Positions 1 to 38,727 of a stretch of DNA of 60,961 nucleotides are shown in pieces. This DNA comes from an uncultured Candidatus Saccharibacteria bacterium (GTDB lineage: Bacteria > Patescibacteriota > Minisyncoccia > Phycocordibacterales > PALSA-1337). The DNA lies in assembly GCA_964565685.1 (NCBI GenBank), contig CAZMFR010000006.1:1-60961 (forward strand), in the 5' to 3' direction. Under the pieces are notes generated by a model, which saw only the letters and a list, made by a program, of their open reading frames with translations, was not told where the DNA came from and made no database searches. Position 1 is the first letter of the stretch; each line of letters begins with the position of its first letter. The position numbers and the translations under genes are program-made.

Positions 1-5
1 TTAAA

Positions 6-55
6 TTAATTGTGGCTAATGATTAATTCTAACTGTCCTACTTCAAAGGTTGCTA
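6..55 (+). repeat. Left copy of 50-bp perfect inverted repeat (partner 60912-60961)
   Basis: TTAATTGTGGCTAATGATTAATTCTAACTGTCCTACTTCAAAGGTTGCTA is the exact reverse complement of 60912-60961; the match breaks at position 56. Confidence 0.95.
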
Positions 56-95
56 TTTTTTGATGACATTGACCGAAAGGGTTTTACATCCAAGG

Positions 96-126
96 GCAGC
101 CCTCCTCGCGGAGGGCTGCTTTCTTT
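96..126 (+). terminator. Intrinsic terminator-like hairpin
   Basis: GCAGCCCTCC-tcgc-GGAGGGCTGC, a 10-bp stem followed by TTTCTTT, just past the NYN gene stop. Confidence 0.75.
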
Positions 127-132
127 ATTGTC

Positions 133-699
133 CTACTTGAGCTGTTGTCGATGCTTCAATTCCCTGCCCCAAATATCTTCAGTAATGTCGAGCACGTCAA
201 TATACCCGTCAGTTCCCGTCTTTAGCTCTTGCGAAATGTTGTTTTTTGAAGAAAATACGTAGACTTTCTTGCCACCATTCCGCACATACGAGGTAAGCGC
301 CAAGAAATCATAATCACCAGAAAATAGTACTGCCGTGTCATATCTTTTCATGTGAGTAACCACATCTATGGTTATTTCCACATCCATGTTGCCTTTCTCT
401 TCGATGGTTTCTCCTGTCGGCGACGTGACGGTTATCCGCTTCAGTTCTTTCTTACGAACGGTCATGCCGAGCCCTTTCTTGAGGTACGTAAAGAATTTAT
501 GCCTCCCATCAAGGTCATAATCTCTCGTGCCTTCTTTGGGGTAAGCGGTGTAATAGAACATTTCAACAGAAGAAGCATCAAATTTCTTTGTGAGAAAATC
601 CTTGAGCTTTGCATAGTCAAAAAAGCGGCCCTTTGTCTTTTGGGCCTGCCAAACATTCGATGCGTCTATGAATGCAAAAATTCTGTTCTTGCCTGACAT
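133..699 (-). CDS. NYN domain (LabA/DUF88, PIN-like) ribonuclease
   Basis: FIDASN, EKGNMDVEITID and LFSGDYDF acidic PIN/NYN motifs. Confidence 0.9.
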   Translation of the reverse strand: MSGKNRIFAFIDASNVWQAQKTKGRFFDYAKLKDFLTKKFDASSVEMFYYTAYPKEGTRDYDLDGRHKFFTYLKKGLGMTVRKKELKRITVTSPTGETIEEKGNMDVEITIDVVTHMKRYDTAVLFSGDYDFLALTSYVRNGGKKVYVFSSKNNISQELKTGTDGYIDVLDITEDIWGRELKHRQQLK

Positions 700-742
700 T
701 CTGACAATTATAATATTTTTTGCTCAACGATAAAAAAAGAGC

Positions 743-925
743 TTATTTAATTTTAATTGGAAAAATCGCATCCTCCCCTTTTGTCCATTCATCGTAGAGC
801 GCCTTGTTCGCTGCGATGAAATCCAGGTTTTTGAAATCATATTTCGTGCTGCCGATATTGGCGACCTTGCCGCCGGCTTCGGAAACAAGGAGCGAGCCGG
901 GAGCGTAATCGTCTTTTGTTTTCAT
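743..925 (-). pseudogene. C-terminal remnant of an inositol monophosphatase-family gene
   Basis: DYAPGSLLVSEAGGKV resembles the IMPase WD.AAG.L.V.EAGG.V signature; no N-terminal half present. Confidence 0.55.
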
Positions 926-974
926 GCTTTTATTCTATCACACCCCATGCACCCATCCTGGCAGAGGTTTTTGT

Positions 975-1661
975 CTACTTTTTTACTTTTTTTTCATCCG
1001 CCACCCTCCATAAAACTCGCGCAGCATACGTACTATACGGCGACCATTTATTTGCGAGCATATCCATGAACCGGTCGCTCGGCATCTTCTTTAATTTATA
1101 CAGATACATGATCCCCTTGCGCAGGCCGAGATCGCCTTTTGAAAAAATGTCTTGTCGGCCAAGTGAAAACATAAGGATCATCTCCGCTGTCCATGGGCCG
1201 ATGCCCTTGATGGAAGTGAGAAGCTCGATGACTTTCGCATCGTCATGTTTGTGGATTCTGGCAAGATCAATCTCTCCTTTCAAGACCGCCCGTGCCAGGC
1301 ATTTGACTGTGTTTGCCTTTGCTTCAGACAAACCACATGCGCGAAGATCTACCCTTCGCAAAGCTTGAATATTCTTTGGCGTGATTGCGCCTGCTTTACC
1401 CCCCTTGCCCCATTCTTTGCTGCTCTTTTCTTTTTCCTTGTCATTTACAAACCGCGTATGCGTATGACCGACGGCGAGAGCTTCGAGCCGATCATATATA
1501 GTATCCGCCGCTTTGCCTGAAAGCTGTTGATTCACAATCGCATGAACGATATCGCCAAACATGTCTCTTGAGCGGCGTATATTTGCTATCTCGTGCAGCT
1601 TTGCCGCCCGATACAAAATCGGGTCTACCTTTTTAAAATGAATTTTTGCGCGATGATACAT
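975..1661 (-). CDS. alkA: DNA-3-methyladenine glycosylase (AlkA/HhH-GPD family)
   Basis: IVNQQLSGKAA, LTSIKGIGPWTAEM helix-hairpin-helix, GDLGL, WSPY. Confidence 0.85.
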   Translation of the reverse strand: MYHRAKIHFKKVDPILYRAAKLHEIANIRRSRDMFGDIVHAIVNQQLSGKAADTIYDRLEALAVGHTHTRFVNDKEKEKSSKEWGKGGKAGAITPKNIQALRRVDLRACGLSEAKANTVKCLARAVLKGEIDLARIHKHDDAKVIELLTSIKGIGPWTAEMILMFSLGRQDIFSKGDLGLRKGIMYLYKLKKMPSDRFMDMLANKWSPYSTYAARVLWRVADEKKVKK

Positions 1662-1777
1662 ATCTACTATTCTATTTACTATTCAGTCAAAGCAAGTTCT
1701 AAAGTTTACAACGCTACCATATTTATCATATTAGAATAGCGATTTTGAGTTTTTGATTTTCATAATTTTTTCTAGAT

Positions 1778-2344
1778 CTAATATTTCCTAACTACCCCCC
1801 TTACCACTGCGGCGATATTAAAAGACTCTTTTGGATAGATAGGTTTGAAATTCTTGTTGGCCGGCTCTAGATATGACTTGCCGGCTTTGTCATGACGCAG
1901 ATATTTCATGGTCCATCCATCATCGACGCACGCGATGACGATATCGCCAGGTTTGGCTTCCTTGCCTCGTTCAGCCAAAACATAATCGCCTTCGTGAATG
2001 CCGGCGTCTATCATCGAGTCGCCTTTTACCTGTAAAAGATATGTCTTGTCTTTCTTTTCGATCAAGTATTCATCCAAGCTCAAACTGTCTAACGGCATTT
2101 CCTCGGCCACGGATGGAAAACCCGCCTCGACGAGACCGAGCAGAGGCACCTCACCGAAAAGTTTGCTGGGCAGAAGACGACCGGTCTTGTCTTTCAATAC
2201 AATGCCTTCATCGATGAGACGATTGACAAGCTTGTAAACCGCATTTTTTGATTTAAAGCCGACGAGACGCATGATTTCAGCATAGCTAGGCATGCGCTTG
2301 TGATCAGAGTAAAAATCGAATATTTTGTCTTTATAATCTGGCAT
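1778..2344 (-). CDS. lexA: LexA repressor (wHTH + S24 peptidase)
   Basis: PSYAEI HTH, VEAGFP Ala-Gly cleavage site, VKGDSM catalytic Ser, TMK catalytic Lys. Confidence 0.85.
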   Translation of the reverse strand: MPDYKDKIFDFYSDHKRMPSYAEIMRLVGFKSKNAVYKLVNRLIDEGIVLKDKTGRLLPSKLFGEVPLLGLVEAGFPSVAEEMPLDSLSLDEYLIEKKDKTYLLQVKGDSMIDAGIHEGDYVLAERGKEAKPGDIVIACVDDGWTMKYLRHDKAGKSYLEPANKNFKPIYPKESFNIAAVVRGVVRKY

Positions 2345-2362
2345 GTTCTTTATTATACAGGA

Positions 2363-2569
2363 TTAGAACATGAAGAGACTGGCGAATCGAAGCGAACCCC
2401 GCAACCAAGGACTTTTTCGCAGAGAAAGGTCCCGTAACTGTGCGCGCAGGAATTTATGCCTGCGGGCCTCGTTGTAATACGGGACACCCTGAATGATTTT
2501 TAGATCGATGCGATGATTGAGCTTGTTCAGCTCGCTTTTTATGACTTTGAATGCTTTATATTGGCTCAT
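2363..2569 (-). CDS. Small basic hypothetical protein upstream of lexA
   Basis: ORF from MSQYKAF, 18 nt from the lexA start, downstream of a TATACT -10. Confidence 0.6.
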   Translation of the reverse strand: MSQYKAFKVIKSELNKLNHRIDLKIIQGVPYYNEARRHKFLRAQLRDLSLRKSPWLRGSLRFASLFMF

Positions 2570-2612
2570 GGTTTTAAAATGACTAAATTTATAACTGCCT
2601 TCTAATGAATAT

Positions 2613-2635
2613 AGTATAAGTGAACAATCGTTCAC
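2613..2635 (-). promoter_or_regulatory. -10 box (TATACT) with adjacent GAAC-N4-GTTC palindrome, candidate LexA operator
   Basis: GTGAAC-aatc-GTTCAC at 2620-2635 next to the -10 at 2613-2618. Confidence 0.7.
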
Positions 2636-2650
2636 CTGCAATAGGTCACC

Positions 2651-2659
2651 TGTGGATAA
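2651..2659 (-). promoter_or_regulatory. Perfect DnaA box (TTATCCACA); others at 15099-15107, 18245-18253, 24332-24340
   Basis: Exact R1-type 9-mer in intergenic DNA. Confidence 0.6.
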
Positions 2660-2660
2660 C

Positions 2661-2685
2661 TAGTCCAAGGGTAGCCCTTGGACTA
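2661..2685. repeat. REP-like palindrome CAAGGG-(CTA/TAG)-CCCTTG, copy 1
   Basis: TAGTCCAAGGG-tag-CCCTTGGACTA, 11-bp arms. Confidence 0.85.
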
Positions 2686-2890
2686 AAGCCACATCTCGAT
2701 GCCTTGCTTACAAAACAATATCACTCACTACCAAATTTAGGACATAATAATACCCAAAATTTTTCATTTCTCCGCCATCTTCGCTTCCCAACTTTTCCTG
2801 CATAAAATTATTGGATTAAAATTTAATCCAATATTACAAATGCGCTAATCTTTGATGCACCCATTCAAGGCGCCGATCTGCTTGTCTATT

Positions 2891-3060
2891 AAATGACCTC
2901 CTCCCCGCAGTTCCTGCGTGGTTTCCTTTTGAGGCCGCTTCGCGAAGCATTGCTCCGCTCGTCGGGCTCGCTCCGGATCCATTCATCCATGCACTTCGGC
3001 TTGCTACTTCAAGCTCGAGCGACGCATCCTACGTGCGAGGTTTCCTGGAAAAGAAAAAAC
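2891..3060. repeat. ~170-bp dispersed MITE-like repeat, copy 1
   Basis: Near-identical to 28942-29110; its two ends are also fused at 17218-17270. Confidence 0.9.
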
Positions 3061-3137
3061 GCCTGAATTTGACGTAAATTCCTGAGTTTGTCGCAAGCGG
3101 TATCATCCGTCGCAAGCGGGTCTTTTTATTTCTCGAT

Positions 3138-4391
3138 CTATTTCTCGAGAATTTTTCCAAGTTCCCCCTTTACCACCATCTCCACCTTGCCAGATTTACG
3201 GTCTTTTACTTCAAACTTGCCTTCTTTCAAATTCTTTTCGCTGACGACAACGCGAGTAGGAATGCCGATGAGGTCGCTGTCGGCGAATTTTTCGCCAGGA
3301 CGGAGGTCACGGTCGTCGTAGAGGACGCTTGTTCCATTCTTTAAAAGCTCGTCATACAGCGCATCTGCTTCTTTTTTTGCAGTTCCTCCTTTATCAAAAA
3401 TAACCACGAGATGAACGTCGAATGGTGCAATACCGCGAGGCCAGACGAGGCCGTGATCGTCCGACATGGTTTCCGCTATAACGCCCATGACGCGGCCAGG
3501 TCCGATGCCATAACTGCCCATGACGACCGGTTTCTTCTTGCCATCCATATCTAGATAGTTCAAGTCGAATGCATCGGAAAAGCGCGTGCCGAGCGAGAAT
3601 ATATTGCCGACTTCGACGGCTTTCTTTTCGATCAGATTTTTGCGATCAAGACCGAGGTCATTGAGGACTTCGTCATTCAGCACTTCTTTGTTCACGGCGA
3701 TCTTTTTCTTTTCATCGATGTAGATCATATCCTCGCCGGCGTCGCTGAGCGTTTGGAATTCGTGAGAATACTTCGAGAAAGAGCCGCCGGAAGCGAATGT
3801 GATATACGTCTCGTCACCGAGTCCGAGCCGCTCAAAGATTTTGACATATGCCGCTTTTGCTTTTTCATAGAAGTCGACATGCTCCTTTTCGTCGCGGCTA
3901 AAAGAATACAGATCCTTCATTAAAAATTCGCGGGCGCGCATTATGCCGCTCTTTGCGCGCGCTTCATTGCGGAATTTCGTCTGAAATTGGTATGCAGAAA
4001 AAGGCAGATCGCGAAAAGAGCTGATGTAATCTTTCATCAAGTTCGTCAACTGCTCTTCGTGAGTAAAACCAAGACCAAGCTCAGTGTCGTTCTTTAATTT
4101 TGTTTTGAACCAATTGTCCACTGCGACATCATCCCAACGGCCGCTCTTTTTCCAGACATTCGGATCTTGGAGAGCCGTCAAATAGAGCTCCTGTCCGCCG
4201 ATCGCATTCATCTCCTCACGGATAACCTGAACGATATTATTGAGCACGCGCAAGCCGAGGGGCAAGTAGGAATAGACGCCAGCGAGCTCTTTGTGGATGA
4301 ATCCTGCACGGATCAAAAGCTCGGCGTTCTTGGCGACTTCGTCCTTTGGCGCCTCACGGCGGGTTTTGGTGAATAATTGGCTCTGACGCAT
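3138..4391 (-). CDS. proS: Prolyl-tRNA synthetase (short form, no editing domain)
   Basis: AGVYSYLPLG, FRNEARAKSGIMRAREFLMKDLYSF, GSYGIG class II motifs and anticodon-binding domain. Confidence 0.97.
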   Translation of the reverse strand: MRQSQLFTKTRREAPKDEVAKNAELLIRAGFIHKELAGVYSYLPLGLRVLNNIVQVIREEMNAIGGQELYLTALQDPNVWKKSGRWDDVAVDNWFKTKLKNDTELGLGFTHEEQLTNLMKDYISSFRDLPFSAYQFQTKFRNEARAKSGIMRAREFLMKDLYSFSRDEKEHVDFYEKAKAAYVKIFERLGLGDETYITFASGGSFSKYSHEFQTLSDAGEDMIYIDEKKKIAVNKEVLNDEVLNDLGLDRKNLIEKKAVEVGNIFSLGTRFSDAFDLNYLDMDGKKKPVVMGSYGIGPGRVMGVIAETMSDDHGLVWPRGIAPFDVHLVVIFDKGGTAKKEADALYDELLKNGTSVLYDDRDLRPGEKFADSDLIGIPTRVVVSEKNLKEGKFEVKDRKSGKVEMVVKGELGKILEK

Positions 4392-4618
4392 GATATTACT
4401 TAGCATTATTATAGCATATAGAAATCTTTTCAGAGAAGCTCACCCCAGTGTAAGTGTATATGACAATCATCTGACACGACTCTCGACATGACCAATGATA
4501 AGAGACCTATAGACAGAAAATCATTCGTAATCCACTATGTCATTTGCTATAATATGTCCATATTTATATAATTCATATACTTAATACCGCCGCAAACAGA
4601 TCTACGGCACAAATACAC

Positions 4619-5440
4619 ATGAAAATCTCTCCAAATAAAAGCCGCGGTTTCACTCTCGTAGAGCTCCTGGTGACCATATCGATCATTGCATTGCTGTCGA
4701 GCATAATCTTGGTCTCCCTGAACGGCGCCAGACAAAAAGGGACCGTCGGAAGTGCTATAGAGTTTGCCGATAACGTATATCACAAGCTCGGAGTCAATAC
4801 TATTTTGTCTATGAATTTCAATGAAGGATCAGGCGAACCAAACGATCAAACAGGGAATTTTATCAGACGGTCTGGTTATACACTTAATGATACAACATAC
4901 AGTAACAGCACTCCATTCAGTGATAACGGCGACTCTCTTAGTATTGGTAGTTCTTTTGATCTTCCTATGATAAATAATTATTCTGTTAGTACTTTCAATC
5001 TCACCGATCAGAGTGGATTAACAGTTTCCATATGGGCTAACACTCTTTCAACAGATAACATTACTAATACAGCATATAACCTATATTATATTACATCAAA
5101 TACTCCTTCTTCAAATTCTATTCTTCAAGGATATTACTCAAATTATTATGTAATATGCAAATTTTTAGGAAATATCTCAGGACAATCGGCAGTTTACATG
5201 CCTTCTTTTAATGATGGCAACTGGCACAATGTGACATGTTCATATGATGTAAATAGTGGCAATCTTATGCTTTATGTAGACGGTGTTTTAAAGAGTACAA
5301 CCAGCGTATCCACTGCGCCAGGAACAGTCATCACGGGGATAAACAATGTCTTGTATGTCGGCAGTGCAGGCAGTGGTGCTGGTCCATTCTTAGGCCTAAT
5401 AGACAACTTCCAGATCTTTTCCGGTTCCATCGTAGAATAA
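4619..5440 (+). CDS. Type IV pilin-like protein with C-terminal LamG/concanavalin-A domain
   Basis: RGFTLVELLVTISIIALL prepilin cleavage motif; DGNWHNVT...LYVDG...IDNFQIF LamG motifs. Confidence 0.85.
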   Translation: MKISPNKSRGFTLVELLVTISIIALLSSIILVSLNGARQKGTVGSAIEFADNVYHKLGVNTILSMNFNEGSGEPNDQTGNFIRRSGYTLNDTTYSNSTPFSDNGDSLSIGSSFDLPMINNYSVSTFNLTDQSGLTVSIWANTLSTDNITNTAYNLYYITSNTPSSNSILQGYYSNYYVICKFLGNISGQSAVYMPSFNDGNWHNVTCSYDVNSGNLMLYVDGVLKSTTSVSTAPGTVITGINNVLYVGSAGSGAGPFLGLIDNFQIFSGSIVE

Positions 5441-5466
5441 ACCACAGCTCATCTCACAGATCGTTG

Positions 5467-6204
5467 TTAGGAATTTATTCCTGTGTTTTTCCTCTTATCT
5501 TTCAATTCTTTTCTGATAGAAGCGACATATTTGCCGAAAGTCTCGCTCGTCGGATCGCGCGGATAGGCAAGCTTTACCACATGCTCATGGATGATGCGAC
5601 CTTCGTGCATGACCAAAATACGCTCACCGAGAGCGACGGCCTCTTCGAGCGAATGCGAGATCATTAAAATGGTTATCCCCCGAGATTTCCAAATATTCAA
5701 AAGCTCGCCATGCAGGGCTTCCGTCGTCTCGGCATCAAGAGCAGAGAACGGCTCGTCCAAAAGCAAAAGCTCCGGTTCAGCGGCCAGGGCGCGCGCAATG
5801 CCGACGCGCTGGCGCTGACCGCCCGAAAGATCGCGCGGATAGACCGAGGCGAGGTCTTTTATATTCATGAGAGCGAGCGCATCCGATGCGAGTTTTTTCT
5901 TGTCCAAGGTGCTACCTTGTACTGAACCAAGAGCAAGCATAACGTTATCCAAAGCCGAATACCATGGCAGGAGCGCGCCGTTCTGGAAGACCATCGACAT
6001 CTTCCTTGGAGCATCCAACGATCCAGATGAAGGTTCCGTCAAGCCAGCGACGAGCTTTATCAGAGTCGATTTGCCGCAGCCGGACGGGCCGACGAGGATT
6101 GTGAACGAGCTTTTTTCAAGAGAAAATAAGACATTATGTAGTACATCGGCACTGCCATTGTGATATTTAAAGCTGACGTCTTTGAATGTAAGAATTGGTT
6201 GCAT
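5467..6204 (-). CDS. ABC transporter ATP-binding protein (NitT/TauT-like)
   Basis: GPSGCGKST, LSGGQRQR, LLLDEPFSALD. Confidence 0.9.
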   Translation of the reverse strand: MQPILTFKDVSFKYHNGSADVLHNVLFSLEKSSFTILVGPSGCGKSTLIKLVAGLTEPSSGSLDAPRKMSMVFQNGALLPWYSALDNVMLALGSVQGSTLDKKKLASDALALMNIKDLASVYPRDLSGGQRQRVGIARALAAEPELLLLDEPFSALDAETTEALHGELLNIWKSRGITILMISHSLEEAVALGERILVMHEGRIIHEHVVKLAYPRDPTSETFGKYVASIRKELKDKRKNTGINS

Positions 6205-33353: not shown

Positions 33354-33435
33354 GGTCGTATTATATCAAACTTATATGCTGGCCGTGTGGGACAGTATTC
33401 GAACAGAGTTAAGCCGTTAAAGGCCGATTATGGAA

Positions 33436-34653
33436 CTATTCTCTGCTCTCAACAATGAAGCTTGCTCTTTTATAGAGCTCGTCAAATGTAATGATGTCTA
33501 TACCATGAATTGACTTACGAAAACGTTGGAAGGTCTCACGTTTACTTCTTTCAGTAGAAATTTCACTCAATAAGCCAATAACGATAATCCCCTTGGGTTG
33601 GACAGTGTAAATATCGTTATTTTCTAATCTATCTCGATTATCGGGTTGTTCAGAACCCTGTTTTTCCCATGTCTGAATATTTGCTCCAATTTGTGATAAT
33701 GCATCTGTTAGCTCCTTAGACAAACTCCATGCACCGTTCCTGATTTCACTATTACCTTGAAGTAAATGTGTTGACGGTCTTTTGATCTCGACAAGTACAG
33801 TAAAGTTTATATCTCCAACAGTAGAGGTTAAAAAATCTCCTCTTTGTCCACCCTGTCCATCAACATGCTGACCGCCGTAGTTTGGCTGAGATTGTTCTTG
33901 CTTCAAGATTTGATAATTTAAACCATATCCAAATATCCACTTATTTTTCTCAAAAAAGTCTTGCCACCAACCTTCATCATTCGATTGACTAGAAATTGCA
34001 GTATTGAATTCAGAAAGTTTCTCACGTCGTTTAAGAACCATATTCAGGTCTTCCTTAGAAAATTGTAGGTCTGGTATTGATGTTGAAAGACTTTTTATAA
34101 TATTCACTACACTTCCTGCATATCGTCCACGCAGTTCAGAAATAATATCTGCTTCATTTTTCGGCACTAGAGCGACAGGTTCTTGTAAAGGAAGTTCTCT
34201 TAAAAGTTCAGTAATAACATTCTGTTTCCTCGCATCAGGCCATTTTCTAATTGCATCTAGAACGTTTTTCTCATTACTATGTATTTTCACAAGATTATCT
34301 TTTTGATCATCAGTAAGTGTAATATTTTCTAATGATATATTTTGTCCGAGAAATGCTTTTAACCTCCCTCCGGTTTTACGTCCTATAGTTATACAGAACT
34401 TTTGATAATCGTCCATATTAATCAGAAAGCCACCATCCACTTTTAAGAAAGGTCTAATGTTCGAGTTGAGTGTAAAATATAGTTTAACTTCTGGGTTTTC
34501 CTGTAGAAAAGGAACTATATTTTGACGATAAAATGGGAAGTCTCTTCGTTTTGTTTTATGATTGAAATAAGTCTGAAAATTGTCTCGTTTATCAAGATAT
34601 AGACTTAATGCTCCGTATGATTCTGAACTGAAATTGTCGGAATTAAATTCCAT
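33436..34653 (-). CDS. sduA: Shedu-type (DUF4263) PD-(D/E)XK nuclease with uncharacterised N-terminal domain
   Basis: FFEKNKWIFG, GDFL...LVEIKRP, ALSQ, KGIIVIG, IITFDELY. Confidence 0.8.
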   Translation of the reverse strand: MEFNSDNFSSESYGALSLYLDKRDNFQTYFNHKTKRRDFPFYRQNIVPFLQENPEVKLYFTLNSNIRPFLKVDGGFLINMDDYQKFCITIGRKTGGRLKAFLGQNISLENITLTDDQKDNLVKIHSNEKNVLDAIRKWPDARKQNVITELLRELPLQEPVALVPKNEADIISELRGRYAGSVVNIIKSLSTSIPDLQFSKEDLNMVLKRREKLSEFNTAISSQSNDEGWWQDFFEKNKWIFGYGLNYQILKQEQSQPNYGGQHVDGQGGQRGDFLTSTVGDINFTVLVEIKRPSTHLLQGNSEIRNGAWSLSKELTDALSQIGANIQTWEKQGSEQPDNRDRLENNDIYTVQPKGIIVIGLLSEISTERSKRETFQRFRKSIHGIDIITFDELYKRASFIVESRE

Positions 34654-34732
34654 AGTAGATAGAAAATAATCTACCATATTTTTGAATATTTTTCAACCTG
34701 ATCCTTGACTAGAATGAATTTAATGAATTTTC

Positions 34733-35509
34733 TTATTTTTTATAAGAATCTACCCGTTTATTTGCTAAATCAACATATTTCTTTTCCTTTTCAATTCCAA
34801 TCCAATTACGGCCTAGAGCTTTTGCAACAACTGCAGTCGTTCCGCTACCTAAAAATGGATCGAGGATTAAATTGCCCTTTTTGCTAGATGCTAATACAAC
34901 TTGCTGTATAAGTTTAAGAGGTTTTTGGGTGGGGTGTAATTTTATTCCATCCGCACCTCTTAATCGCTCATTTCCTCGACAAATAGAAAAATTCCAATCG
35001 GTATCTTTCATTTGTTTTCCACCATTCATCTTTTTTAAAAGTTTGTAATTAAATGTATATCCTTTCGCGGTTTTATTTTTTACAGCCCATATTAAAGTCT
35101 CGTGATTATTAGTCAGTCTCCTGCAGTTTAAATTCGGTAGTGCGCCAATCTTTACCCAGATGACATCATTCAAAAACCATAAACCTAAATCTTGCATTAT
35201 TTTTCCAACACGAAAAATATTATGATACATTCCAATAACCCAAATTGTTCCTGTTGATTTCAAAACTCTTTGACATTCTCTTAACCAATTCTCGGTGAAT
35301 TTATCGCATTCTTCATAACTTTCAAATTTATCCCAATCGTTATCAACCGGTATTACTTCTGAACCATCTGCTCGTTTCAATCTTTTCCCTTTTGGTAATT
35401 GTAAATAATACGGCGGATCTGCAAAAATCAAGTCAAAAGTATTGTCGGGAAATGTCTTTAATATTTCCAAACAGTCGCCATGAAAAATTTTATTAACGTC
35501 TTTAAGCAT
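34733..35509 (-). CDS. Beta-class amino DNA methyltransferase (M.HinfI/CcrM/DpnA-like)
   Basis: LIFADPPY precedes HPTQKP...ILDPFLGSGTT. Confidence 0.92.
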   Translation of the reverse strand: MLKDVNKIFHGDCLEILKTFPDNTFDLIFADPPYYLQLPKGKRLKRADGSEVIPVDNDWDKFESYEECDKFTENWLRECQRVLKSTGTIWVIGMYHNIFRVGKIMQDLGLWFLNDVIWVKIGALPNLNCRRLTNNHETLIWAVKNKTAKGYTFNYKLLKKMNGGKQMKDTDWNFSICRGNERLRGADGIKLHPTQKPLKLIQQVVLASSKKGNLILDPFLGSGTTAVVAKALGRNWIGIEKEKKYVDLANKRVDSYKK

Positions 35510-36630
35510 CAGTAATTCTTTACAATTAAATGTTCGACATCTCGATCATTCCTACCCTTTACGTTGTATAAATAAGTCTTATCAAAGCTAGAAATTGATA
35601 TTTTTGGCTTATTCTTGTACAAATTCAAAATAAAAGGTGTGTTTTTAATAATTAAAATAAACTTTGCTTTTGTGTGATATAGATTCTGAGCTAACCTTTC
35701 TTGATCTTGTTTATCAAAAGACGCTTTTTCGTAATCACTAAAATCAGTATCGTATGGAGGATCAAGAAACATAAAGTCCTTGTCCGTAAAACCATTTTTT
35801 CTGAATATTTCTCCAAAATCTTTATCCTCAATTTTTGCGCCATTAAATAATCGCTCAACTTCATCACTAAAAATATAATCAACTTTACCCCTAAAGTCCT
35901 TTGCGTTATAAGCTATACCGCCATATGGGATGTTAAAGTGTCCGTCTGCGTTAAAACGAAACATTGAAGCATAACAAAACTCTCGAATAAAATAATAATT
36001 CGCTATTTTTTTGGCTAACGATGTCTTATATTTATTTCCATTGAAATTCATCACATCCCTAAAGTGCATATAGAAGCCGCTTCGAAATGCTGTTTCGATA
36101 TTTTTTATCAGATCGCCATCGCCAATTTTTCCTCGTTCTTTTTCAATCTTTTTTACTCTGCCAAGTTTTGAAGTAAGATTTGATATGATTTGTCTCAATA
36201 AATTTTTATCATCTAGACAAAAATCATTATTAAATAGGCCATTAAATCTCTTTTCCTCTGACTCTAAATATTTATTTACTGATTTTTCAAGATCTTCTAT
36301 AGATATTTTATCATCCTTAAAATCAACATATAATTTTATTATCTTGTTTTCAAAAATATCAATATATTTTGGTATTTTTTCCCAATTATCGACATAGTCA
36401 TATAAAGCTTTTTTAAATTCTTTTTTATCTTCTTGGCCTTTTACAAATTTATAAAAATACGTCAGTTCTTCACACACGTCATTTATGATGGCTTTGCGTG
36501 GTTTTAGTTGGAAAAAGACAGCTCCACCGCCAAAGAACGGTTCGATATAGCGATCATATTGGGGGATAATATCTTTAATGTATTCAAACTCTCTTGATTT
36601 ACCCCCCGGCCATTTGATAAGTGGTTGCAT
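35509..36630 (-). CDS. Alpha-class (Dam/D12-like) DNA adenine methyltransferase
   Basis: KWPGGK, YIEPFFGGGAVFF, FRFNADG.FNIPYG, FLDPPY; stop overlaps the next start. Confidence 0.92.
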   Translation of the reverse strand: MQPLIKWPGGKSREFEYIKDIIPQYDRYIEPFFGGGAVFFQLKPRKAIINDVCEELTYFYKFVKGQEDKKEFKKALYDYVDNWEKIPKYIDIFENKIIKLYVDFKDDKISIEDLEKSVNKYLESEEKRFNGLFNNDFCLDDKNLLRQIISNLTSKLGRVKKIEKERGKIGDGDLIKNIETAFRSGFYMHFRDVMNFNGNKYKTSLAKKIANYYFIREFCYASMFRFNADGHFNIPYGGIAYNAKDFRGKVDYIFSDEVERLFNGAKIEDKDFGEIFRKNGFTDKDFMFLDPPYDTDFSDYEKASFDKQDQERLAQNLYHTKAKFILIIKNTPFILNLYKNKPKISISSFDKTYLYNVKGRNDRDVEHLIVKNY

Positions 36631-36635
36631 AATAA

Positions 36636-37454
36636 TTATCCTAAATAAGTTTTCCTTATTGAATCTAACGAAGCTTTAATAAGGCCGGCTTTTTCTTTAT
36701 ACGCTTCAAGCACAATGTTATATCCATCTTTCGATTTACAGACAAAATCCCAGAAATCTTTTCCGATCAAAAGTTCATCATCAGCAAAAAACTGACGTAC
36801 TCTTTCTTGTCGCCACGGCTTACCCTCACCAAAACGATTATAAGCAGTCGCAAAAAATATTTTAATACCAGCGTCCTTTGCCTGTGTATTTGATAAAATA
36901 GCGAATTGTTCCAATAAAGCTTCTTTTTCTGATCGCGCTTTTTTGTTATCAAGATCACCGCCTATTTTTAACTCAATCAAAGATTCTTCGCTTGTTTCTT
37001 TGTCGATTAAATAATAATCGCTATCATGCCTTTTTGTAACGAGTGATTTTTCTGCTGGTTTGATTCTCAAAAATTGATAGTCTTTTATCGTAGGTGGAGT
37101 AATTTCTCTGCGCTTGTATTTTTCTAATAATTCCGCAATATCTTGAGTTTGTTTTAAGCTAAGAGGCCCTTCAACATTTTGTTTAACTTCATACGATAAT
37201 TTGGCAATATTTATTGCCATTTTTTCTAGCATATTACCCAAAGAACTATCAAGTGAACGGACAAGAGCTGTGTAGTATTGTATTTCCGGTCCAAGAACAG
37301 CAATAAAGACATTGTGTATCTTCATATTCAAAGTGCCTTCAGGATCATCCAATTCACCTTCGTGCCTGCCCTGAAAACCGACTGCAAAAGATTCAACGGA
37401 GGCATGGACGATTGATCTTATTGCTTCTTTCTTTTCTAAAGTATTTTGAGACAT
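36636..37454 (-). CDS. TdeIII-family type II restriction endonuclease
   Basis: SLDSSLGNMLE and IELKIGGDLDNKKARSEK motifs recalled from this family; adjacent to two MTases. Confidence 0.75.
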   Translation of the reverse strand: MSQNTLEKKEAIRSIVHASVESFAVGFQGRHEGELDDPEGTLNMKIHNVFIAVLGPEIQYYTALVRSLDSSLGNMLEKMAINIAKLSYEVKQNVEGPLSLKQTQDIAELLEKYKRREITPPTIKDYQFLRIKPAEKSLVTKRHDSDYYLIDKETSEESLIELKIGGDLDNKKARSEKEALLEQFAILSNTQAKDAGIKIFFATAYNRFGEGKPWRQERVRQFFADDELLIGKDFWDFVCKSKDGYNIVLEAYKEKAGLIKASLDSIRKTYLG

Positions 37455-37538
37455 GATAAGTAGTTACCTTGTGTTAAATAATAATTTTCTAAATTATACC
37501 ACCCTTACAATAAAATAGGTATTTTTAGGTGGGTCATT

Positions 37539-37761
37539 CGCGCCAAGAGGTGCGCGGTCGCGGGGGTTGTTTTACGTCCGCTTCATACCACCATACTCTT
37601 TGCGCCTGCGTTATCGGCATGGCGGACGCGCCTCGGTATTGCGAAGCAATTACGAGATAGCGCGGTAGCCATGCGGATATAAGCAAAGGCGCACTACAAG
37701 CTGTTATTGAAGCGGACATACGCTCTGGAGTATGTTCCGCGACCGCGTACTGCTTGGCGCG
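37539..37761. other. Nested rod-like inverted-repeat structure, candidate single-strand origin (sso)
   Basis: Five nested complementary pairs plus a terminal ATTGC-gaa-GCAAT hairpin; GC-rich within AT-rich DNA. Confidence 0.65.
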
Positions 37762-37808
37762 GTGTTGACTCGTTATACATTTTAAAAGTGTAATGATAAA
37801 ATTGTCCT

Positions 37809-38450
37809 ATGAGCCTAAGAGAAGACACAATCAAGTTTTTGGAGATGATCTGCGCCGAGCTAATACCTCGAGAAATTTGTGACGAAGAATTTCAAGAAGT
37901 CACTCTTACTGAAGATGATTTCAAAAAAGAGGGATTCTCCTTGAACTCGGCTATCTCACTGATAAAGGATATCTTTGTTGCGGGTTATATTAAAAATTTT
38001 AATTCTACTTCTAAAGATAACGTCAATACTGTACTATTATCCGTCTCATCTGATATTGAATTCTACACAAAACGGCTGAAATACCCGGAGTTGAAATACC
38101 CAGATATTGAATATGATGAATTCTTAGATCCTATTCTAACCACACCAACAAAAACGAGCATAAAGATCAATTCTAGCAGGGGTATATTTAGAGAAGATAA
38201 TCCAGAATTATGCTATCCACTTAAAATGTCTGCAAGCAGAATGAAAATAGTTCTTTGTCTTCTTAACAAAGACAGAGTTTCACTTTCAGAATTGGGAAAA
38301 AAGACCAAGCAGGCACATGGACTTATCTCAAAAGAAATTCGAGAAATCAATTCTAATTTTAGAAAAAAAGTTATTGATGATGACCTCATTACTCGATTGC
38401 CTACCAATGTATATTCTATCAATAGAGACAAGTTTGACGTAAAAACCTGA
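37809..38450 (+). CDS. Hypothetical protein with probable C-terminal winged HTH
   Basis: IVLCLL...VSLSELGKKT...ISKEIREIN...LIT...YSIN pattern. Confidence 0.65.
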   Translation: MSLREDTIKFLEMICAELIPREICDEEFQEVTLTEDDFKKEGFSLNSAISLIKDIFVAGYIKNFNSTSKDNVNTVLLSVSSDIEFYTKRLKYPELKYPDIEYDEFLDPILTTPTKTSIKINSSRGIFREDNPELCYPLKMSASRMKIVLCLLNKDRVSLSELGKKTKQAHGLISKEIREINSNFRKKVIDDDLITRLPTNVYSINRDKFDVKT

Positions 38451-38559
38451 AGAAAACTTTAAGTAGTTGTTATAAACCTCACTTAAAAGGCCTCTGATAT
38501 GGCCTTTTTTATGTTGGGGTCAACTAGAGGTTACTTGCCGATGATGCCAAGATATTTGT

Positions 38560-38727
38560 ATGCAATCGTTCGATAAATTATTGATCATGCGCATACAAGC
38601 ATATTTCAAAAAGAAATACAGGTTGAGTATTTCTGATGAAACTGCAAACGAGTACCTAGATTCTCTGGGTGGCGTCTTTGCTGTGTTTGCCGAGAGCGGG
38701 GTCGTCGAGGCGGTGCCGCGGGCTTAA
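38560..38727 (+). CDS. Small (55 aa) protein upstream of rep, below the ORF-track cutoff
   Basis: MQSFDKLLIMRIQAYFKKKYRLSISDETANEYLDSLGGVFAVFAESGVVEAVPRA, translated by hand. Confidence 0.5.
   Translation: MQSFDKLLIMRIQAYFKKKYRLSISDETANEYLDSLGGVFAVFAESGVVEAVPRA

Follow-up and report, generated by a model that had tools for sequence, protein, structure and literature searches.

Insertion and excision of a mobile element appear to swap the last 8 to 12 amino acids of the element's own integrase. This rewriting of the tail is established by sequence, and it recurs in a family of large serine recombinases whose attachment site lies inside the recombinase gene; a functional difference between the two resulting isoforms is a more tentative proposition. 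The DNA analyzed here (the window) comprises 60,961 nt of the forward strand. We interpret positions 33382 to 41081 as a 7.7-kb integrative rolling-circle element, with positions 33377 to 33420 forming its attL end, and assign this reading as a whole a probability of roughly 0.88. The element would have inserted at the 3' end of a tRNA-Gln(UUG) gene in a Patescibacteria genome, and it carries a large serine recombinase, an HUH replication initiator (Rep), and defense cargo (Shedu and a TdeIII restriction-modification system).

Element, flanks, and recombinase

The features of the element and its boundaries are as follows.

33354 to 33376, no strand: host flank, B arm of the presumed former attB, between the start of the NUDIX gene and the core
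33377 to 33381, no strand: attL core TGCTG, identical to 41077 to 41081, with the crossover predicted within GCTG
33382 to 33405, plus strand: predicted P' half-site of attP (GCCGTGTGGGACAGTATTCGAACA), which imitates a tRNA arm but has TTCGAAC displaced outward by 5 bp, and which fits the consensus of 72 distinct P' arms
33382 to 33420, plus strand: displaced 3' end of the integrase ORF, 12 codons and a stop (AVWDSIRTELSR), in frame with the codons at 41076 to 41081
33436 to 34677, minus strand: Shedu SduA-like defense nuclease (PF14082, E = 1.6e-31)
34733 to 35509, minus strand: N6/N4 DNA methyltransferase (PF01555, E = 1.2e-65)
35509 to 36630, minus strand: D12-class adenine methyltransferase (PF02086, E = 4.8e-31)
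36636 to 37454, minus strand: TdeIII-type restriction endonuclease (PF09520, E = 4.8e-39)
37533 to 37766, plus strand: G+C-rich structured non-coding region (DNA fold of -74.7 kcal/mol, z = -9.2)
37809 to 38450, plus strand: ORF of 213 aa without a Pfam or PHROG match
38560 to 38727, plus strand: ORF of 55 aa without a Pfam or PHROG match
38795 to 39559, plus strand: HUH rolling-circle replication initiator (PF23343, E = 3.9e-19; phrog_3419, E = 4.7e-25)
39624 to 41108, plus strand: large serine recombinase, prophage isoform, 494 aa (PF00239, PF07508, PF13408), its last 8 codons being antisense tRNA
41052 to 41076, plus strand: P half-site of attP inside the codons for SPKNTDLPS, predicted from the ~25-bp half-site of large serine integrases (PMC3783163)
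41077 to 41081, no strand: attR core TGCTG, overlapping tRNA nucleotides 71 to 73
41082 to 41104, plus strand: predicted B' half-site, consisting of the antisense tRNA acceptor stem and T-arm, translated as RDLGSNQ
41079 to 41149, minus strand: tRNA-Gln(UUG), intact and full length, the integration target (ARAGORN; Rfam RF00005, 60 bits, model positions 1 to 71)

A NUDIX gene flanks the element on the left, and a DUF2127 gene and dnaX flank it on the right; the best relatives of these flanking genes are in Paceibacterota/Patescibacteria genomes. The G+C content drops from ~0.47 to 0.29 to 0.38 immediately right of 33400, and that of the cargo genes (33436 to 37454) is much lower, at 0.27 to 0.36. 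The cargo in this interval is all defense related, and its four genes lie on the strand opposite to Rep and the recombinase. The structured region at 37533 to 37766 is 85% conserved in a sister element (described below), is detectable in six further loci of the family, and is a candidate single-strand origin or structured RNA (ncRNA) of the rolling-circle element.

The recombinase (ATG at 39624, stop at 41106 to 41108) has a resolvase catalytic domain (PF00239, E = 7.3e-22) with a YCRKS motif, a recombinase domain (PF07508), and a zinc ribbon (PF13408) in which all four Cys are invariant. Its catalytic residues are intact, R8 and S10 being invariant across 27 to 44 homologues, and it carries serine recombinase domains only, with no domain of tyrosine chemistry. 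The AlphaFold2 model places long helices at residues 330 to 411, consistent with a coiled coil. Foldseek matched the model to the SPbeta, Bxb1, phiC31, and LI integrases (E = 1e-21 to 1e-12), and the nearest solved structures are the SPbeta, Bxb1, and phiC31 integrases, with SPbeta SprA the nearest of all.

Two reading frames at the junction

In the window the recombinase gene ends ccg agt ctg ctg, cga gac ttg gga tcg aac caa gat tag, which is read as PSLL-RDLGSNQD and a stop. The preliminary description placed this end (DLPSLL-RDLGSNQD and a stop) within the antisense strand of a tRNA-Gln gene, and translation of the ORF, ARAGORN, and Rfam all agree. It also held that the far boundary shares TGCTG and continues in frame, and this too is confirmed from the sequence. 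TGCTG is found at both 41077 to 41081 and 33377 to 33381, the left end of the element reads ATGCTG followed directly by GCCGTGTGGGACAGTATTCGAACAGAG, and positions 33382 to 33420 read gcc gtg tgg gac agt att cga aca gag tta agc cgt taa, which encodes AVWDSIRTELSR and a stop in frame with the ctg ctg of the recombinase.

Recombination within GCTG would always exchange the tail of the integrase: the episomal gene would end SLL-AVWDSIRTELSR and encode 498 aa, and the prophage gene would end SLL-RDLGSNQD and encode 494 aa. The RDLGSNQD tail would be the same tRNA-like DNA read from the real tRNA, with the spacer absent and the tRNA untouched. GCTG covers tRNA positions 71 to 73 and one further base, so the tRNA would stay intact whichever dinucleotide is exchanged. 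For the window element we infer that the crossover falls within GCTG (41078 to 41081 and 33378 to 33381); because the identity shared by the two ends is only 5 nt, this assignment rests on family analogy. Crossover in the shared core with retention of the tRNA, and an excised form ending DLPSLL-AVWDSIRTELSR, had both been proposed from the window, and recurrence across the family and a circular relative (see below) speak for them. The predicted attP junction is CCGAGTCTGCTGGCCGTGTGGGACAG, and the predicted attB junction is CAAACTTATATGCTGCGAGACTTGGGATCG.

A 17-nt consensus of the P' arm, with one mismatch allowed, occurs once in the window, at the left boundary, against 0.18 expected occurrences. 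CAGTATT and AATACTG form a pair in the window, a possible inverted symmetry of P and P' by which the central dinucleotide might be placed; the symmetry in the circular relative is weak.

Anatomy of the attachment site

We propose that in this family the 3' end of the recombinase ORF contains attP. The codons immediately ahead of the crossover would form the P half-site, and the next eight codons would form the P' half-site, which would be a copy of the tRNA acceptor stem and T-arm with a 5-nt spacer added. The spacer would set the TTCGAAC motif 5 bp farther out than in attB, and it is by this spacing that large serine integrases distinguish attP from attB. A zinc-ribbon motif 5 bp nearer the center in attB than in attP has been described for Listeria LI and other large serine integrases (PMC3783163; PMC11722253). 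A short core and a motif lying 5 bp outward in attP were found here as well, in a comparison of the primed arms only.

The P' profile, built from 72 distinct arms, is conserved from +1 to +23 (G at 1, T at 5, TGG at 7 to 9, ACGA at 11 to 14, GTT at 16 to 18, and GAAC at 20 to 23), and beyond +23 it holds nothing other than a single T at +29. The B' arms have GGA at +9 to +11 and TCGAAC from +13 (41 of 42). In the P' arms GG(G/T)A occupies +8 to +11 and is followed by a spacer of 5 nt, in most cases CGANN; T(C/G)GAAC starts at +18 (67 of 72). In two loci (L039 and L050) B' and P' agree in all of their first 11 nt (AGACGGTGGGA), after which TGAAG precedes TTGGAAC in P' as an insertion. By this comparison, the integrase tail is largely the translation of the P' half-site of attP, and both tails are two readings of essentially one tRNA-like DNA, which gives DSNQ/P without the spacer and DIRT in the frame set by the spacer. 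The host-side B arm (positions -9 to -6) carries almost no information across the family, which suggests that recognition of attB rests mainly on the tRNA half.

Recurrence in homologous loci

The protein search yielded 3,074 homologues (E <= 1e-10), and the scan of species-representative genomes gave 577 matching stretches; the few homologue sources that name an organism are Patescibacteria lineages. We retrieved 79 genomic loci, 60 of which were analyzable. After a conserved PKNxDLxxLL, the C termini of the 120 closest homologues fall into three classes.

Class a: translations of antisense tRNA, e.g., RDLDSNQD or GDRESNPN
Class b: a stop 2 to 4 residues on
Class c: a conserved tail, [AL][VL]WDDIRT, which is the peptide that the left boundary of the window encodes

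The class c tail ends an intact ORF in ~14 of these 120 homologues. The recombinase ORF ends inside an antisense tRNA gene, at the identical codon boundary, in 42 of the 60 loci. The targets in these 42 loci are tRNA genes for Gln, Ser, Leu, Lys, Ile, Tyr, Trp, Gly, Pro, and Met, and the tRNA 3' end lies at a constant offset from the codon boundary. The core depends on the tRNA: Gln loci have TGCTG, Ser and Trp loci TGCGG, and Leu, Lys, Ile, and Tyr loci TGTGC.

At least 23 of the 42 loci have a cognate remnant 2.6 to 11 kb upstream on the same strand, consisting of a matching 4- to 5-nt core followed by GCNNTNTGGKACRANRTYVGRAC. The conserved 24-nt arm of the remnant encodes [AG][VL]W[DY]x[IV][RG]T, in line with the WDxxRT tails at distal island ends for which the preliminary description proposed a survey. 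The first pattern used had recovered a remnant in just 17 of the 42 tRNA-junction loci, and in ~7 such loci with at least 9 kb of upstream sequence a remnant was still not found. In 943 kb of homologous loci the tail peptide pattern has 46 matches on the recombinase strand and none on the opposite strand, and 21 of 28 distal matches have their last 4 nt in common with the junction core of their own locus. Among 23 cognate attL/attR pairs from other loci, 21 have at least 4 nt in common immediately left of the boundary, and 13 have nothing in common right of the codon boundary.

A circular relative and a sister element

Two 5,897-bp contigs (L001 and L002), which come from different samples, encode a class c protein, P0052. 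The ends of each contig overlap by 30 nt, and both sequences represent a single 5,867-bp circle, of which they are exact circular permutations. The recombinase of the circle reads across TTGCTG directly into GCCGTCTGGGACGATATTCGAACAAGATTGCCTTAG (also given as GCCGTCTGGGACGATATTCGAAC after the same TTGCTG), and this intact gene ends STLL-AVWDDIRTRLP and a stop. Terminal overlaps were sought in four further attP-type contigs (L003, L129, L130, and L131), and none was found; circles are shown by L001 and L002 only. No circle was found for the window element itself.

A sister element from the same sample as the window (contig L126) encodes a recombinase (P0121) with ~97% protein identity as far as DLPSLL; from there its sequence is set by its own tRNA-Gln(CUG) and reads RGLDSNQDDSFQRAASYH. 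Homology between the window and the sister contig begins at 33388. In the sister contig (regions 4100 to 4170 and 11440 to 11530), the left end of the element begins TGGGACAG, without the core and 6 nt (TGCTGGCCGTG). Such ends can therefore decay, and this element may no longer be able to excise.

Searches for an empty site and occurrence of the island

An empty attB was sought with the exact NUDIX and DUF2127 flanking proteins and was not found, as all 12 loci recovered carry the island; several of these loci stop inside or beside it. The tRNA-Gln/NUDIX arrangement was not conserved among 31 genomes compared through synteny of a flavoprotein neighbor. A metagenome scan with the host-flank pattern gave no matches, and a scan of viral contigs with the family attP pattern likewise gave none. 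The metagenome scan with the predicted attP junction gave two matches, both of which were rejected as unrelated high-G+C contigs without homology.

The island is found in peat and bog samples (e.g., ERZ27249819, SRR6181329, and JGI 3300014160). Five of six contigs compared have identical islands (100% over 2.7 kb), and the sixth differs in two bases; the recombinase gene is 100% identical in five and 99.9% identical in the sixth. Given its presence in all 12 flank-recovered loci and the identity of five of the six contigs, the element may be fixed in its population. We infer that it is still mobile.

Does exchange of the tail have a function?

A chance match of TGCTG, with the boundary of the island elsewhere in 33354 to 33435, would fit the mere 5 nt shared by the two ends and the failure to recover an empty site, but it is highly improbable. 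The adjoining 24 nt form a family motif that, across more than 20 independent loci, keeps a constant position, strand, and frame with respect to the core, and both the start of homology with the sister element and the shift in G+C content coincide with the proposed boundary; the worry that a 5-bp match might be accidental, voiced in the preliminary description, is countered by the joint presence of core and conserved 24-nt arm in at least 23 homologous loci. Given an exchange at this boundary, we lean slightly toward the tail being a pure by-product, in which the ORF overlaps attP through the compactness of the element, the tail is unselected, and the isoforms are equivalent. The identity of the DNA as a P' half-site explains most of the conservation of the tail, judging from the aligned arms: each strongly conserved residue of the tail falls on a conserved P' DNA position, and the conserved block stops at +23 save for the single T at +29. 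Because the P' motif cannot create an in-frame stop, read-through needs no selection, and the length of the tail after the motif (9 to 21 codons) is about that expected by chance in A+T-rich DNA. In prophages the tail can be as short as 2 residues or longer than 100 and is thus not selected, two homologues with 82% body identity (P0093 and P0086) share only 2 of 20 tail positions, and the 28 C-terminal residues of the SPbeta integrase are disordered in cryo-EM (PMC11722253). An unselected tail is harder to reconcile with a subclade of six proteins (58 to 74% body identity) whose tails of 31 to 33 aa all end in KLREAG, with up to 10 of 21 identities past the first 10 residues; this conservation lies ~90 nt from the crossover and is therefore too distant for a half-site. 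Nor does it fit well with a predicted helix across the junction or with the role that has been published for the C-terminal element of SPbeta SprA, as cited in PMC11722253.

These last observations speak instead for a functional, state-dependent switch in which the isoforms differ in directionality control, partner binding, or stability, a possibility that we regard as doubtful on the sequences and models at hand. The episomal isoform would have a complete C-terminal amphipathic helix, and the prophage isoform a truncated helix followed by an arbitrary tail. In the AlphaFold2 model of the episomal isoform a helix spans the junction at 482 to 495 (pLDDT of ~80); in that of the window prophage isoform it ends at 485, with pLDDT values of 60 and then 37 beyond. 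These confidence values, however, may just track conservation in the alignment. A hydrophobic residue (L, I, V, F, or M) lies two positions past the conserved Thr in 68 of 72 tails, with more than 12 different codons in use. It is encoded at +28 to +30, beyond the conserved DNA block, and together with V/L2, W3, and I/V6 it gives amphipathic spacing, but P' arms in arrays without a preceding recombinase ORF (e.g., in L058) retain the +25 to +30 pattern. The extreme C-terminal element and F532 of SprA are reported to affect directionality (cited in PMC11722253), and a gapless extrapolation of the HMM alignment places the C-terminal region of SprA near the PKN...LL junction, although only as a rough correspondence. 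In Mx8, integration gives int a new 3' end and the properties of the enzyme change (PMC6070905). In a stronger form of the switch, which seems unlikely, the helix completed or truncated by recombination would be a built-in determinant of directionality: the episomal isoform would be locked into integration, and the prophage isoform, which lacks the helix, would perform or allow attL × attR excision, either with no dedicated directionality factor or together with another partner. If true, the placement of attP would by itself give a serine integrase a toggle that needs no further component. This toggle would belong to a family whose zinc ribbon targets the universal tRNA T-loop DNA and which assembles cassette-like arrays beside tRNA genes. 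The exchange might alternatively act on expression, as the prophage integrase mRNA would lose its own 3' end and meet the tRNA gene head-on, giving less integrase and more stable integration. The integrase and tRNA genes are convergent and overlapping in all 42 tRNA-junction loci, and in the circle the ORF would end 15 nt from a convergent cargo gene; an effect of this kind nonetheless strikes us as improbable.

The assertion that no directionality factor is evident is unsupported. Both the 55-aa and the 213-aa unannotated ORFs lie in the element and are candidate directionality factors, the 55-aa ORF being a possible regulator or directionality factor, and directionality factors have no conserved signature (PMC12286644), so the absence of such a factor cannot be concluded. 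A small ORF lies at the equivalent position, upstream of Rep or the integrase, in five related contigs (L003, L126, L129, L130, and L131).

Comparison with known systems

The preliminary description took mycobacteriophage BPs-type integrases as the precedent for an att site within an integrase gene. This is wrong, as attP of these phages sits in the repressor gene (PMC3694055). The BPs-type integrase has a C-terminal degradation tag that is unaltered by integration, and it is the degradation tag of the repressor that integration removes (PMC3694055). BPs resembles the window element in having attP inside an ORF, such that the C terminus of a protein is changed on integration, but there the ORF is a repressor, the lost tail is a degradation tag, and Int is a tyrosine recombinase. 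In the window, attP lies in the recombinase gene and no repressor gene spans the site.

The true analogue of an int ORF that crosses attP is the IntP/IntX pair of Mx8, and also the integrase of SSV. Mx8, whose integration target we take to be the 3' end of tRNA genes, replaces a much longer segment than is replaced here, and the integrase gene of SSV-type viruses is split into two large parts. As in the window element, int of Mx8 gains a new 3' end and hence a C terminus that depends on the integration state. Mx8 int nevertheless encodes a tyrosine recombinase, whereas the window enzyme is a large serine recombinase with a swap of just 12 codons for 8, in DNA that also serves as a half-site. 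The attP of Mx8 lies inside int (IntP in the phage and IntX in the prophage), and the integrated enzyme stays active with changed properties (PMC6070905; PMC4383910). SSV-type fuselloviruses likewise have an integrase ORF that spans attP and a tRNA gene as the target (PMC4383910). Their integrase is also a tyrosine recombinase, while the window enzyme keeps its catalytic and DNA-binding domains in one piece, and 486 of its 498 codons, including all domains, remain contiguous after integration. Both Mx8 and SSV are named in the Islander paper as having integrases that extend across attP (PMC4383910).

The window recombinase shares its domain set and fold with the integrases of Listeria LI/A118, SPbeta (SprA), Bxb1, and phiC31. 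The 5-bp outward shift of the zinc-ribbon motif in attP is common to large serine integrases (PMC3783163), among which the extreme C terminus of SprA has been implicated in directionality, as far as the cited source relates. Unlike in characterized large serine integrases, the B arm of attB has no conservation in the window family, and recognition appears to rest on the tRNA half. With the tRNA-targeting genomic islands of tyrosine integrases (Islander signature), the window element shares insertion at a tRNA 3' end, an integrase at the tRNA-proximal end, and defense cargo. Those islands, however, duplicate a tRNA fragment, and their displaced end is a piece of tRNA, whereas the two ends of the window element have only 4 to 5 nt in common and its distal end is a tRNA mimic with a 5-nt insertion. 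A search for repeats found no direct repeat of the tRNA, and only TGCTG is shared.

The literature that we searched, which is incomplete, gave no description of attP inside a serine integrase ORF, of a tRNA gene as the target of a serine integrase, of a Patescibacteria integrase clade, or of tRNA-arm mimicry in a serine attP. The homologues thus apparently constitute a large, undescribed integrase family in Patescibacteria with an ORF that runs across its own recombination site, for which the anatomy, the recurrence across the family, and one circular relative are shown by the sequences compared. Targeting of tRNA genes, the habit of this large clade, is given in the searched literature as a property of tyrosine integrases only. 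Serine integrases are major tools of genome engineering, and the control of their direction is an active question; a natural family that edits its own C terminus at each recombination would offer a direct and cheap test of the role of the C terminus in directionality. Its attP/attB pairs display the 5-bp zinc-ribbon shift very clearly, attP being a tRNA arm plus five bases. In addition, these elements bring defense systems into Patescibacteria, whose mobile elements are poorly known.

Gene calls, other targets, and arrays

The JGI gene calls leave out the recombinase in four contigs (L086, L087, L089, and L090) whose DNA is 99.9 to 100% identical to the window; the ORF was checked in L086 and is intact. 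Overlap of the ORF with a tRNA gene is the probable cause. The integrase family may accordingly be under-annotated, and with one gene-calling pipeline dropping tRNA-overlapping ORFs, it is partly invisible in some annotations.

In four loci (L027 at 11458, L035 at 11458, L052 at 5539, and L064 at 11320) the recombinase ORF enters GCCGTCTCGAG(C/T)T(A/C)GAACCG and has tails such as AVSS and a stop. The target in these loci is GCCGTCTCGAGCTAGAACCG. A tRNA was considered for this target and rejected, as ARAGORN finds none and Rfam gives no family. The motif has attB-like spacing and resembles the P' arm of another locus (L073) minus 5 nt, and may therefore be a mimic of attB that belongs to another element. 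Matches to LOOT RNA (RF03000) above the gathering score occur in the neighborhood of three of these loci, away from the junctions (L027, 19853 to 19967; L035, 19454 to 19573; L052, 3492 to 3605 and 12337 to 12449).

Dense arrays of P'-arm remnants lie upstream of tRNA-adjoining recombinases of the family in L058 (positions 1 to 5700) and also in L042, L047, L025, and L074. The L058 array has 11 arms in 5.6 kb, mostly near-identical over 24 nt and preceded by GCTG. They are 300 to 1,400 bp apart, and each spacer has one or more small ORFs, a layout suggestive of stepwise accretion or of a cassette array that a serine recombinase has assembled.
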